DNA of 4,313 bases from the IMG/VR virus record IMGVR_UViG_2778261204_000004; one strand, written 5' to 3'. The position numbers and the translations under genes were made by a program. This document shows, piece after piece, positions 1-4,006 of the stretch (the first letter of the stretch is position 1; each line of letters opens with the position of its first letter). The notes under the pieces are model-generated. The model was not told the origin of the DNA. It saw only the letters and a program-made list of their open reading frames with translations, and did no database searches. This stretch comes from a virus. Lineage: Duplodnaviria; Heunggongvirae; Uroviricota; Caudoviricetes.

Positions 1-96
1 GACTTCACTGAGAACTGCGCCGATTTTGGTTTCAAATACGCCGCCGTCCAGCTCCCCGATAAATGCCTGCACATCAGTACTGCGTTCGCTAGCCAT
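1..96 (-). CDS. Hypothetical protein, N-terminal 32 codons only; gene continues past the left window edge. Sits at the head of the leftward operon (the position N occupies in lambda), but the visible N-terminus is not arginine-rich and I do not recognise the family.
   Basis: Reverse complement of 1-96 reads ATG GCT AGC GAA CGC ... = MASERSTDVQAFIGELDGGVFETKIGAVLSEV with no stop to the window edge. A strong SD (GAGGAG, complement of ~103-108) lies 6-7 nt upstream of the ATG at 96-94. Absent from the ORF track because it is truncated. Confidence 0.5.
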   Translation of the reverse strand, partial: MASERSTDVQAFIGELDGGVFETKIGAVLSEV

Positions 97-279: not shown

Positions 280-691
280 CAAAGCAGTGGCTGTTGTGGT
301 GGGGTTGTCACTTAAGCGTATGGTCAACCTGACAACCCGGTGCCACTAATGGGGTAAGGATAACCCCGCCATACTTACCGCCGCGCCATTTCGCGGATTA
401 CCACAACGCTGAGAGCACTTAGCCAGTTATGGCACCACACTTTGTCGCGGCTCCATAAATGCCCTCATCGTTGCACCCTGGTCTCTTCCCAGGCGTCAAA
501 CCGAATCGCCACGCTGGTTAGGCGTCTTATCAGCATCATCATTGACTTGCACATTCCGGCTACCTGGTTTGTTTGCCCGAGCAAGGAGTGGATTGTCCCC
601 TTTAACGTCCCCAGACCGCTAACGACGCATGTGCCATACGCCGTGTTACAACCAACCTTTCGTTAACAACAGTCTGTTGTTTGTTCAGATA

Positions 692-735
692 ATAATGCTA
701 CTAAAAGTAGCAAAAATCAACAACAAAAAGTAGAA
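692..735 (-). promoter_or_regulatory. OL/PL-like module: leftward sigma70-like promoter (-35 TTGATT at 720-715, -10 CATTAT at 697-692, minus strand) with a 15-bp palindromic operator-like site (gctactaaaagtagc, 697-711) in the spacer, and a second AAGTAG half-site 23 bp away (728-733).
   Basis: The minus-strand 17-bp spacer tttgctacttttagtag is 15/17 identical to the spacer of the PR-like promoter at 3081-3097 (tttgctattttaagtag). Both are flanked by TTGnnn and CAT(C/T)AT hexamers. The palindrome has perfect 6-bp arms, gctact / agtagc. Confidence 0.45.
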
Positions 736-946
736 GTGTGTATTTAATTTTTAGTTTTCTATATAACGTTATGAATTAAAAGGTTTTTCACAGATGGGAT
801 GATGTGGCGTAGTTACATATAGAAAATATCGAGTGTCTTTTGTTTTGGTTTAATTATTAGGTTAATTAGATAGTAATAATTTGGGGGAAAATAGTGGGAA
901 CTATGGATACAACGGGTCAGGAACAGTGTTATTAAGCAGGCTACGA

Positions 947-972
947 GTATAAAACCCGACCGGTTGGTCGGG
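947..972 (-). terminator. Rho-independent terminator ending the leftward cI / ParA-like transcription unit.
   Basis: Perfect 7-bp GC-rich stem cccgacc (955-961) / ggtcggg (966-972) with a 4-nt loop. On the minus strand it is followed immediately by TTTTATAC. It lies 37 nt downstream of the stop codon at 1009-1011. Not a plus-strand terminator (no T-tract follows on plus). Confidence 0.6.
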
Positions 973-1008
973 CGAGAATTATGTTCGTTCTAAATCATAG
1001 TTATTGTA

Positions 1009-2094
1009 TTACAGACACTTGACTACTGTTGAAACATCAGATTCTAGTGCTTCAATTTGTGCTCTATTAGCTTGGGTCGCCATACCATAGATAGTGTAAC
1101 TCTTATGCTGCAGCCTACTTAAAGGGCATCCCTCATGGTTTATTATTGCTGCAAGAGTATTACCATCTTTGACATTTTGAACCCTCTCGAAAGTAGCCAC
1201 ATTTGTGAACAGATGAGGATGTGTATTTAACAGGTCATCAGTGATTCTTTTGATCTCTTCTGCATGTGATTTGAATGCTTTTGCTGCATCACTTTCATTA
1301 GTTCTTGAGCGGTTTTGTACGAAAAGGTGTAGTTCAGGTAGTTCGATAAGGTTTTGCTTTGCTTCTTTGTTGAAATCTAAGAACATTTCATCTTGTTCTG
1401 ACTTGTCAATAGACACTCCATAAATAAGTTTAACAAGGTTTTTTATTCCGCGAATTGATGCAGCATCGGCAGTGCAAGGGATAATTATTCTATTTGCCGC
1501 GACTACTCCCAATTCTGTGTAGCTGGCAAAACTTGGATTACAATCAATAAAAAATGTTTTTGCTCTGTCAGAAATGTTTTTATCGGCTTCAAAAGATGCT
1601 ATTAGATCTACCAGCAAAGATCGGCTTTTCTTCCATGCTTCTTTTACTGGGGATGAGCCAATGTGAGATATTAAGCGTGAACAGATATCAAGATCGACAT
1701 CACCAGGAAGAATATATAAGTTCTCTGGCATTTTTGCATTAACGTCATGGGCCCGTACAAAGTAAGAAGATTCATTTCCTAAACGAGACAAAGGAGATTT
1801 GCTAAAACGTTCCTTGATATAACCTGCGATTGTAACATTTCTGTCTCGCAATTTATTTAGATTTTCTTCCCCGGTACCATTGCCACCAAGAATAATTTCT
1901 GAAACGTTTGATTGAGGGCATGAGTCAATAACCACAACATCTTGATCCGGATGAGATATAGCAAACTCAACGGCAAGATTATATGTAAGAAAAGTTTTTC
2001 CTACACCACCTTTGTTGTTCCATACTAAATATTTTGTATTGGTGGAAATCATATCTGCTACCCCATCTGTCGCTTCAGTACGTTCATTAATCAT
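1009..2094 (-). CDS. ParA/MinD-superfamily P-loop ATPase (deviant Walker A), 361 aa, standalone. No ParB-like partner or centromere-like repeat array is visible.
   Basis: Deviant Walker A KGGVGKT (nt 1993-2013, residues 28-34); A-prime-like VVIDSCPQSN; Walker-B-like hydrophobic run ending in Asp (TFFIDCNPS). SD AGGA sits ~7 nt upstream of the ATG at 2094. An internal Met (2052) would give a more typical ParA N-terminus, so the start is slightly uncertain. There is a C-terminal extension of roughly 80-100 aa beyond a typical ParA core. Confidence 0.85.
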   Translation of the reverse strand: MINERTEATDGVADMISTNTKYLVWNNKGGVGKTFLTYNLAVEFAISHPDQDVVVIDSCPQSNVSEIILGGNGTGEENLNKLRDRNVTIAGYIKERFSKSPLSRLGNESSYFVRAHDVNAKMPENLYILPGDVDLDICSRLISHIGSSPVKEAWKKSRSLLVDLIASFEADKNISDRAKTFFIDCNPSFASYTELGVVAANRIIIPCTADAASIRGIKNLVKLIYGVSIDKSEQDEMFLDFNKEAKQNLIELPELHLFVQNRSRTNESDAAKAFKSHAEEIKRITDDLLNTHPHLFTNVATFERVQNVKDGNTLAAIINHEGCPLSRLQHKSYTIYGMATQANRAQIEALESDVSTVVKCL

Positions 2095-2318
2095 TATCGT
2101 ATCCTGTTGTATAGAATTGTCTATTATTTATGTTTTATTTTGTGTTAGTAACGCACCCAAAGATAACATATGGTCTTTATCTTTTCTTACTTAGGGTAAC
2201 AGCTCAGTGTTAATCCATTTTTATGGACCAATGTGCCAAATAAAATTTGTATAAAGATTTTCTATCCTTATCTTTTATCATCTGTGCTCGTTTGCTTTAA
2301 CGATTGCTAGATGCCTAA

Positions 2319-3059
2319 TTAAAGTCGATTATATTTAATCGACTCATGAATCAGTGCCTTACCCATAACATAAAGCTGATCTTGCGACTTCTCATCAATG
2401 TACCATTTCTCATAGGCGGGGTTATCCGAAAGAACAGCTAGTTTGTTGCCTTGCATTTGTAGACGTTTAACATGGAAAGTCTTACCGTAAACGAAAGAGT
2501 AAACTCCATCAGTCTGGAAGTGGCGAACGGAAATGTCGACAAACAATCGATCCCCGGAAACAAGAGTTGGGGACATACTATCTCCATTTACCGTCATAAC
2601 TTTTATATCATTCTGAGAACGGTTTCCGAAAAGAGAACGGGCATGTTCAGTTGTGAACTCAATGGCGTAGAGCACATCAACATAGTCTGAAAGCATATAG
2701 GTCCCAGGTCCTGCGCTAACGCTAAGATCCAAAACTTCTATCCTGTATACATCGGGCTTTGTTGGATTGGGGATGCTTGCCATTTCCTTACATTCCTCTC
2801 TATCTCCAACACCATATTCTAGATATGAAGCTGATACCCCAAGAGCCAACGCAAGTTTACTCATGACAGAGACACGTGGCTTCGCTGCGCCGATTGTGTA
2901 TCGACGAGCCATTTCATATGTAACGCCCACAAGACTTTTGAGTTGAGTGACAGAGATTCCTTTGATTGTCATCAATTCGTTTAGTCTCTTGGCGAAATCT
3001 GGATACTTCTGTTCTTCTACCATAGGTAGAAGATTACTCACATCACACGCGCTAGTCAT
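2319..3059 (-). CDS. Phage cI-like repressor: N-terminal XRE/Cro-CI type HTH plus C-terminal S24 (LexA/UmuD-like) self-cleaving peptidase domain.
   Basis: HTH-like segment FAKRLNELMTIKGISVTQLKSLVGVTYEMARRY. S24 catalytic dyad context: nucleophile Ser in VNGDSMSPTL and the general-base Lys in HVKRLQ. Divergent from a Cro-like gene. The track ORF begins at TTG 3080; I prefer the in-frame ATG at 3059 (protein MTSACD...), so the start is uncertain and the transcript may be leaderless. Confidence 0.88.
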   Translation of the reverse strand: MTSACDVSNLLPMVEEQKYPDFAKRLNELMTIKGISVTQLKSLVGVTYEMARRYTIGAAKPRVSVMSKLALALGVSASYLEYGVGDREECKEMASIPNPTKPDVYRIEVLDLSVSAGPGTYMLSDYVDVLYAIEFTTEHARSLFGNRSQNDIKVMTVNGDSMSPTLVSGDRLFVDISVRHFQTDGVYSFVYGKTFHVKRLQMQGNKLAVLSDNPAYEKWYIDEKSQDQLYVMGKALIHESIKYNRL

Positions 3060-3129
3060 TTCTATTTTAAGTAGTTGCAATTTGCTATTTTAAGTAGCAT
3101 CATCCCTCTGAATTTCAGAGGAGAAAGGC
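3060..3129. promoter_or_regulatory. OR-like divergent control region: two 13-bp direct repeats ctattttaagtag (3062-3074 and 3085-3097, spaced 23 bp) with partial dyad symmetry. PR-like promoter for the Cro-like gene: -35 TTGCAA 3075-3080, -10 CATCAT 3098-3103. Strong SD GGAG(A) at ~3119-3124.
   Basis: Repeats read directly from the sequence. The second repeat sits in the 17-bp spacer of the PR-like promoter, mirroring the arrangement at 692-720. On the minus strand a TAAAAT -10-like hexamer sits 4 nt upstream of the cI ATG, consistent with a leaderless PRM-like transcript. Confidence 0.6.
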
Positions 3130-3393
3130 ATGTCATCTCAAAACTACACAGAGAAAGCAGTAAAGGCTGCGGGAAAATCTTTATCTGAAGTAGCCCGTCG
3201 CTTTGGTTTTAAGTCCACTCAATCCGTCGCTAATTGGGTAATTAACAATCAAGTCCCGTCAGAACGGGTTTTACAACTTTGTGAGTTGGGAAACTGGTCC
3301 GTGACCCCTCATGAACTGCGTCCTGATATTTACCCCAATCCAAATGATGGATTACCTGAGTGCTATTCAAAAGTTAGCGGTTCAGCTGCGTAA
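3130..3393 (+). CDS. Cro-like small HTH DNA-binding protein (YdaS/Cro-type), 87 aa.
   Basis: Divergent from the repressor, with a strong SD. HTH-like segment SLSEVARRFGFKSTQSVANWV and a C-terminal ELRPDIYP motif that I recall from YdaS-type Cro proteins of Rac-like prophages. Recognition is from memory, not a search. Confidence 0.8.
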   Translation: MSSQNYTEKAVKAAGKSLSEVARRFGFKSTQSVANWVINNQVPSERVLQLCELGNWSVTPHELRPDIYPNPNDGLPECYSKVSGSAA

Positions 3394-3421
3394 ACGTAAC
3401 CACAGAAACGAGGAATTAACC

Positions 3422-4006
3422 GTGGGTAAAGAACCTGAATGGAAAGTTGATAAGCAACCAGCATGGCTGGTGGCAGCAATACGAAGAACGATTGCTGATT
3501 TACCTCATGGCTATGAGGAAGCAGCGGAAATTCTTGGTTTGTATAAATCTGATGATATCACCCCAGCGAAAGATCAATTGCATAACAGACTGCGTAGCGG
3601 TGGGGATCAAATTTTTCCACTTGAGTGGGCCATGGTTTTACAGGATGCCAGTGGTACCAGGCATGTAACGGATGCGATAGCGCGTCGTAGTAATGGGGTG
3701 TTTGTGCCGCTGGTGGACATTGATGACATTGACAATGGTGACATTAATCAGCGGCTGATGGAGTCAATAGAATGGATTGGCAAGCATTCCCAGTACTTAC
3801 GCAAGGCAACTGCTGATGGAGTTATTGACCAGGCTGAGCGTGAGCAAATCGAAGAGAACAGCTACCAAGTAATGGCGAAGTGGCAGGAGCATTTGACACT
3901 GTTATTTCGTGTTTTTTGTGCGCCGGAAAAGAGTAACGCCCGCGAGTGTGCAGCTCCGGGCGTCGTGGCGTCGATTGCTTCTGGTTGTGGAGAAACTAAC
4001 GCATGA
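3422..4006 (+). CDS. Phage CII-like regulatory protein (resembles the CP76 / phage regulatory CII family). Start assigned to GTG 3422; the track ORF extends upstream to ATG 3311.
   Basis: Long ORF immediately downstream of cro. GTG 3422 is the first start-capable codon after the cro stop (3391-3393) and has an ideally spaced SD GAGGAA (3410-3415). The upstream in-frame ATGs at 3311 and 3344 lack an SD and would overlap cro by 50-83 nt. The segment [54 protein letters not shown] resembles phage CII (CP76-type) proteins as far as I recall; family assignment is tentative. Confidence 0.7.

Follow-up and report, generated by a model that had tools for sequence, protein, structure and literature searches.

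A putative OL/PL and OR/PR switch with a distinct operator sequence in the immunity region of an Escherichia coli prophage

Known lambdoid switches and the immunity region studied here

In phage lambda, the left operon, PL/OL, a set of accessory genes, cI, OR/PR, cro and cII follow one another in that order. The operators are 17-bp dyads, the repressor is of the S24 type, neighboring operators are 23 to 24 bp apart, OL and OR are separated by approximately 2.4 kb, and the slot between cI and OL is occupied by rexAB. In phage HK022, whose operators are annotated (X16093), the spacer of PL contains one OL site, and a second is found 24 bp away, immediately past the -35 element. The HK022 dyad reads TGAAC-N5-GTTCA. 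Among its OR sites, OR3 extends over the start codon of cI, a distance of 33 bp separates the third site from the middle one, and a further site is located downstream of the PR -10 element. HK022 has no N-type antiterminator gene. Its putL element is situated just after PL (PMC9378689). In phage HK639, the annotated pL and pR promoters share dyads of the form ATAAC-N4-GGTTAT, accessory genes lie between cI and pL, and the annotation includes a structured RNA downstream of pL.

The stretch of DNA analyzed here (4,313 nucleotides, hereafter the window) matches many E. coli chromosomes at 99% identity. In strain 30EVA1, it lies inside a prophage of approximately 42 kb that is integrated at dusA and that combines e14/HK022-like early genes with a contractile tail. 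Judged by its gene content and control sites, the window is very probably the immunity region of a lambdoid, e14/HK022-like E. coli prophage at dusA, and carries an OL/PL and OR/PR switch. Its left end holds the 5′ end of yfdP (1-96, minus strand), the leading protein gene of the left operon. This is followed by a gene for a ParA/MinD-superfamily ATPase (1009-2094, minus), with a terminator-like hairpin 3′ of it (954-973, minus) that would end transcription from the cI-ParA side before OL, and by a cI-type repressor gene (2319-3023, minus). A cro-like gene (3130-3393, plus), encoding a YdaS-family helix-turn-helix (HTH) protein of 87 amino acids, diverges from cI, and a gene for a cII-like regulator (3422-4006, plus; YmfL family, PHROG 101) comes after it, outside the immunity-specific segment.

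This order is that of lambda, and the window shares with lambda the 17-bp dyad operators, the S24 repressor, the operator spacing (23 bp) and the OL-OR distance (2387 bp), with the ParA-like ATPase in the slot that holds rexAB in lambda. Unlike in lambda, however, the operator sequence and the recognition helix of the repressor are different, OL has only two recognizable sites, the third OR site lies 45 bp off and on the cI start rather than at 23 bp, and PL is followed by neither an N gene nor a nut site. We found no N-like ORF between 97 and 690, and the antiterminators of the prophage are of the Q type only. The window resembles HK022 in the placement of its OL sites (one in the PL spacer, the other 23 bp away), in an OR3-like site that overlaps the cI start codon and in the lack of an N-type antiterminator gene; its dyad is different. 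With HK639, it shares the accessory position between cI and PL and a structured RNA downstream of PL, whereas the dyad and the recognition helix differ.

Comparison with heteroimmune relatives sets the limits of the immunity region. Phage Ayreon is 97% identical to the window over 1-655 and unrelated beyond 655, while homology to mEp460_4F5 covers 1-301 and resumes at 3398 through 4313. The operators, cI and cro are thus exchangeable together as a single immunity module, the arrangement known from classical lambdoid phages. The module (656-3129) has a G+C content of 38%, compared to 54% for the stretch at 97-655. The annotated PL of Ayreon lies 42-69 bp past the junction, at the equivalent of window positions 697-724, and carries a dyad of its own, GATACATAATGTATC.

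The repressor (234 amino acids from the RefSeq start) consists of an N-terminal HTH domain (HTH_3, 1.8e-5) and a C-terminal S24 autopeptidase domain (Peptidase_S24, 2.2e-16), and also matches PHROG 4. In the repressor alignment, the Ala-Gly cleavage site (A116-G117), the serine (S161) and the lysine (K198) of the S24 domain are invariant. The closest phage repressors are the CI proteins of HK639 (58% identity) and HK022 (43%, with a highly similar C-terminal domain), and with a best identity of 58% in the phage collection, the specificity of this repressor is absent from sequenced phage isolates. The arrangement described below is an ordinary lambdoid one; what is new is this operator specificity. 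Among complete E. coli genomes, 206 of 5,426 carry a cI of the window type, at a DNA identity of at least 99% in 71 genomes, 90-95% in 133 and 80-90% in two.

Paired putative operators in the left and right control regions

The original prediction was that two similar blocks in the window represent an OL/PL-like and an OR/PR-like site, at which a repressor controls two outward promoters from paired operators. At the level of sequence, every expectation of this reading that could be examined here was borne out. On the minus strand, 720-692 reads TTGATT-TTTGCTACTTTTAGTAG-CATTAT, and on the plus strand, 3075-3103 reads TTGCAA-TTTGCTATTTTAAGTAG-CATCAT, both exactly as proposed. The two 17-bp spacers are identical at 15 positions, as had been stated, and the whole 29-mers at 23. 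The dyad reported at 697-711 is indeed perfect and forms part of a full palindrome of 17 bp at 696-712, TGCTACT-AAA-AGTAGCA. The second sites expected 23 bp away were found at 721-733 (CTACTTTTTGTTG, minus) and 3062-3074 (CTATTTTAAGTAG).

We refer to these sites as putative operators. OL1 (696-712, core 698-710) fills the PL spacer and abuts the -10 element, and OL2 (719-735, core 721-733, minus), whose right half is degenerate, lies 23 bp from OL1 and just upstream of the PL -35 element. On the other side, OR1 (3083-3099, core 3085-3097, again CTATTTTAAGTAG) lies inside the PR spacer, and OR2 (3060-3076, core 3062-3074) is 23 bp away from OR1 and immediately precedes the PR -35 element. An additional perfect dyad, CTACCATAGGTAG at 3017-3029, had been overlooked in the original prediction. 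This OR3-like site (3015-3031, core 3017-3029; CTACC-ATA-GGTAG) lies 45 bp away from OR2 and extends over the start codon annotated for cI (3023-3021); it is likely to be autoregulatory, being placed to shut off cI at high repressor levels. An operator consensus can be derived from the sequences as anticipated, TGCTAYT-N3-AGTAGCA, and would provide, together with the promoter layout, a description of an immunity type carried by approximately 200 of 5,426 complete E. coli genomes. Its value would be practical, in annotating prophages, predicting superinfection immunity groups and planning induction or reporter experiments; no new principle is involved.

The two blocks come from an AT-rich region (656-3129, 38% G+C), and short dyads rich in A and T are frequent, which would suit a functionless, chance similarity between two intergenic stretches. 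The numbers are against it. The inverted repeat formed by 692-738 and 3057-3103 is the longest in the window, and its 36 identities out of 47 exceed the best 47-nt inverted match in each of 60 first-order Markov simulations (mean 29.9, SD 1.1, maximum 34). For the exact motif CTAYNNNNNGTAG, 0.17 strand-hits were expected and six were found, at four places, a count of six or more being reached in none of 200 shuffles, and with two mismatches allowed there are 12 hits against 1.31 expected. Over a 50-kb locus that holds the whole prophage, a motif search of the kind proposed with the original prediction found CTAY-N5-GTAG solely at OL1, OR1, OR2 and OR3, with no further copy. Moreover, the sites and their spacings recur in three prophage lineages amid diverged flanks (see below). 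Together, the statistics and the conservation exclude chance for any practical purpose. The similarity is not an att-site duplication either, an alternative that had been raised at the outset: the repeat is 47 nt long, inverted and internal to the prophage, the ends of which are approximately 42 kb apart at dusA, and its size, orientation and position are those of something else.

We propose that dimers of the cI-type repressor would bind the 17-bp operators through the core CTAY-N5-GTAG. One operator would fill the spacer of each outward early promoter, OL1 in PL and OR1 in PR, and the second, at a distance of about two helical turns, would sit just upstream of each -35 element; cooperative occupancy of these pairs would keep both early operons shut in the lysogen. 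The third site, over the cI start, would serve autoregulation. Repression would end when RecA stimulates the repressor to cleave itself at the conserved Ala-Gly, after which the cro-like protein would presumably use the same sites. The PL transcript would consist, in order, of a structured RNA of approximately 246 nt, some 300 nt more of leader, yfdP-yfdQ-yfdR and the following genes.

Conservation of sites and proposed promoters across prophage lineages

For each diverged class of cI, one genome was fetched: EC11 (L006) and TUM9812 (L007), whose repressors are 96% and 83% identical to that of the window, respectively. All five sites are present in the three lineages at identical spacings of 23, 23 and 45 bp, whereas OL and OR are separated by different lengths (2387 bp in the window, 2247 bp in EC11 and 1667 bp in TUM9812). 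The left ends of the three lineages are unalignable save for an island of approximately 40 bp, TCTACTTTTTGTTGTTG(A/C)T(T/A)TTTGCTACTTT..GTAG, which corresponds to the two operators and the -35 element. Within it, a near-invariant run of 29 out of 31 columns covers window positions 734-704, with the match continuing to approximately 698, whereas elsewhere 21% of the columns are invariant. OL2 is invariant despite its unalignable flanks, the half-sites of OL1 are conserved, and the OR3-like site is identical in all three lineages, to which coding constraint from the overlap with the cI start may add. Differences between lineages sit in the dyad centers: CTA and GTAG are invariant in 12 of the 15 sites, and the exceptions to GTAG are the three OL2 copies, all of which read GTTG.

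The left operators also co-occur with the repressor gene on a larger scale. With 656-1008 as the query, megablast returned the full OL region in 71 genomes and, in a further 103, a match to query positions 41-79 alone, that is, to window 696-734, which is exactly the operator pair. The OL region or its 39-bp core was thereby found in 174 of the 206 cI-bearing genomes; the core had no megablast match in the other 32, which the word size of 28 nt may explain (compare the mismatches in TUM9812). Among the matches listed for both searches (EC11, TUM13867, Ec-FL1-1X, ST69 and LR882493), the core lies approximately 1.45 kb beyond cI. Given the conserved island, the identical spacings and the separate dyads of the heteroimmune relatives, comparison supports the OL/PL and OR/PR reading well, and the two similar blocks most likely serve as the operator-promoter sites on the left and right of a lambda-type switch.

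The proposed PL (692-720, minus) has the -35 hexamer TTGATT (720-715), a 17-bp spacer and the -10 hexamer CATTAT (697-692), with a predicted start near 685. The proposed PR (3075-3103, plus) has TTGCAA, a 17-bp spacer and CATCAT, with a predicted start near 3110, and is followed by the ribosome-binding sequence GAGGAG of cro at about 3118-3123. Each matches the sigma-70 consensus at 8 of 12 positions, and both were therefore left unlisted by a promoter scan that required 9 of 12. PR is conserved in the three lineages, the TUM9812 version being TTGATT-17-CATCAT. At the PL position, EC11 has TTGATT-17-CAACAT and TUM9812 has TTGCTA-17-TAGATT, so that the -10 sequence varies and only A2 and T6 are constant.

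This variation, the score of 8 of 12 and the terminator-like call that the OL1 palindrome received on the minus strand could all be accommodated if the left block were no promoter but a distal accessory operator pair that aids OR by looping, with the left operon starting elsewhere. In phage 186, the flanking FL and FR sites assist repression by looping in this manner. Nevertheless, a -35 element and an A2/T6 hexamer separated by exactly 17 bp surround OL1 in all three lineages, point toward the left operon and mirror PR. From the ParA terminator to yfdP, the promoter scan detected nothing else promoter-like from which the left operon could start, and Ayreon, HK639 and HK022 all have an annotated PL at the equivalent position. 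The conserved -35/17/-10 geometry and the lack of an alternative promoter for the left operon make a purely looping role unlikely, and we favor PL as an authentic, repressor-controlled promoter. In EC11, the PL direction leads, approximately 90 bp past the OL island, to the start of a protein gene.

No convincing PRM was located. One candidate, listed by the promoter scan, TTAAAA-18-TAAAAT (3093-3064, minus), lies wholly beneath OR1 and OR2 and is not conserved in TUM9812. The other and better one, with the -10 hexamer AGTAAT (3038-3033), would be lambda-like in that OR2 is centered near -42, but it has almost no -35 element and its T6 is lost in TUM9812. Both were rejected.

The cro-like gene belongs to this conserved module as well, and the sites might in principle be bound mainly by its YdaS-family product or by another regulator, with the S24 repressor recognizing something else. 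The identity of the dyad, however, tracks the recognition helix of CI. This helix is identical or nearly identical across the window, EC11 and TUM9812 (TYEMARRY or THEMARRY), which share their operators, while HK639 and HK022 have other recognition helices and other dyads at equal architectural positions. The cI-cro intergenic region contains no other repeated dyad, and in characterized lambdoid switches the operators are common to CI and Cro. We consider it very unlikely that the cI-type repressor is not the principal ligand of these sites.

The original prediction had placed the ParA-like gene inside the immunity region. This proved to be the case, with the refinement that the gene is replaceable cargo. 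The equivalent slot of EC11 (L006 3879-4955) encodes another ParA-like protein that is 23% identical to that of the window, and the slot of TUM9812 (L007 3298-3972) holds two unrelated small ORFs without a family match; the slot between cI and OL thus holds interchangeable cargo. These replacements also bear on a different role for the dyads. As a ParA-superfamily gene lies between the two blocks and partition systems use repeated dyads, the sites could be parS-like partition or autoregulatory sites of the ATPase or of a partner protein. Yet TUM9812 retains all five sites without any ParA-like gene, and the sites of EC11 are unchanged although its ParA-like protein is so divergent. We found no ParB-like gene, the ParA-like protein scored 48.9 bits against a cut-off of 180 for the NCBIfam ParA partition equivalog, and three of the sites are located in the cI-cro intergenic region, where they overlap PR and the cI start. 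A ParABS assignment is not supported by these results, and a partition function for the dyads is hardly credible next to their proposed role as repressor operators.

The slot between cI and OL is the usual home of lysogen-expressed accessory or defense genes, and that of the window resembles such a hotspot. PADLOC gave no credible defense assignment for the ParA-like protein (Drt5, E = 0.007). We also noted a promoter-like sequence, TAGACA-16-TACGAT (2123-2096, minus), from which transcription would begin within the 5′ end annotated for the ParA-like ORF, and a second ATG of this ORF at 2052-2050 that gives a usual ParA N terminus, MISTNTKYLVWNNKGGVGKT. Taken together, these two features suggest that the annotated start may be 14 codons too long and that the gene may have its own promoter.

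The leader of the proposed PL and its structured RNA

The leftward gene at 1-96 had been predicted to be repressor controlled. No protein gene of the left operon precedes it, and it would be transcribed from PL, but it would not be the first element so transcribed: PL and yfdP are separated by a leader of approximately 590 nt, and a structured RNA of approximately 246 nt (401-646, minus) begins approximately 40 nt downstream of the proposed PL start. The leader contains no convincing ORF between 97 and 655, folds better than shuffled versions (z = -4.5) and is a mosaic of pieces that occur separately in many phages. E. coli K-12 is uninformative on the leader, because its prophage CPS-53 shares only bases 1-115 of the window.

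The RNA is widespread. Exact 19- to 22-mers of 646-401 match more than 240 IMG/VR contigs among the matches listed, in which the copies form 53 clusters below 88% identity. Members of the family are found in 1,637 of 5,426 complete E. coli genomes (approximately 30%). In RefSeq, the family is not annotated as an RNA, the sole feature underlying the matches listed being an adjacent tRNA-Arg. Searched with Rfam 15, the window and the P7, phiV10-like, SPN1S and BUCT711 loci gave no match to the operators or the leader RNA besides tRNAs, and ARAGORN found no tRNA in the window. Literature searches on the leader RNA yielded nothing relevant, a preprint on the Pas sRNA being unrelated. In the ban operon of P1/P7, a copy of the RNA follows tRNA-Ile (P7 locus), and in epsilon15-like phages (SPN1S, BUCT711 and a phiV10-like phage) it belongs to a unit made up of a promoter-like sequence, the RNA, tRNA-Arg(UCU) and a terminator. 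Among the copies listed, 37 of 215 unique ones abut tRNA-Arg(UCU).

A five-helix structure, in which one helix forms a pseudoknot, was derived by hand and scored on 24 diverse members. It is 96% paired in these members, compared to 25-42% for versions in which the pairing partner was slid. Two-sided changes were found in eight pairs of the helices, a number reached by one of 500 shuffles, and in 27 cells, reached by none of 500. Counts over 215 RNA copies agree with the model and support a further, long closing helix.

In HK022, putL is found immediately downstream of PL, the position held by the RNA at 646-401 in the window. The arms of putL stem I (CGGCG/CGUCG, preceded by AUG) are matched by the first hairpin of the leader RNA. 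The second put stem, however, is absent from the family, whose members are approximately 250 nt long and contain other helices, so that the window has no two-stem put RNA of the HK022 type downstream of PL, and only the first hairpin resembles put. BLAST of the leader against put gave 9-nt words only. R1, the covariance model of the leader RNA, found nothing in the HK022 locus and had no match to putL or putR of HK022 or to putL of HK639 (filters off, E up to 10); the leader RNA of HK639 is putL-like and, by covariance-model search, unrelated to that of the window. Many copies of the RNA, moreover, are stand-alone units with a tRNA and a terminator at their end, a setting in which antitermination would serve no purpose. 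We therefore rejected homology to put, while a functional analogy is possible.

The RNA and the promoter are separable modules, as evident from EC11, which has the same PL without the RNA, from TUM9812, in which PL is fused inside the RNA, and from Ayreon, in which the RNA follows a different PL. In TUM9812 (L007 3038-3088), the immunity module is joined mid-RNA, and the PL -10 element is followed at once by what is left of the RNA, model positions 105-155 only. Recombination junctions at the left end can thus vary and truncate the RNA.

We tentatively suggest, as a possibility somewhat short of an even chance, that a structured phage RNA of a class not described before stands at the head of the repressor-controlled PL transcript and that the switch would directly gate an RNA effector of early development. 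The role of such an RNA might be tRNA related, directed against host defenses or exerted on transcription. The leader RNA may matter more than the switch itself. It is common, unannotated, placed directly beneath the putative repressor control and recurrent beside tRNA genes in very different phages.

Two other conserved pieces of the leader recur separately in other phages, for neither of which an explaining ORF or Rfam match was found. The piece at 407-285 (minus) is present in phage Evi, in PPompW-type phages and in an Actinobacillus phage, and the piece at 239-133 (minus), which contains a 25-bp hairpin with arms at 145-169 and 209-233, is present in ST64B and 118970_sal3. In the P7 ban operon, a sequence upstream of terB (L009 1560-1675) gave a near-threshold Rfam match to STnc100, a prophage sRNA (43 bits, gathering threshold 47), which has no bearing on the switch. 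Finally, the 3′ domain of the RNA, inside the closing helix, is variable. The window copy is without T-arm-like hairpins, which are present in this domain in several members (GGTTCGATTCC or GGTTCAATTCC; L132, approximately 1600-1725) and may represent decayed tRNA sequence or a tRNA-mimicking element.
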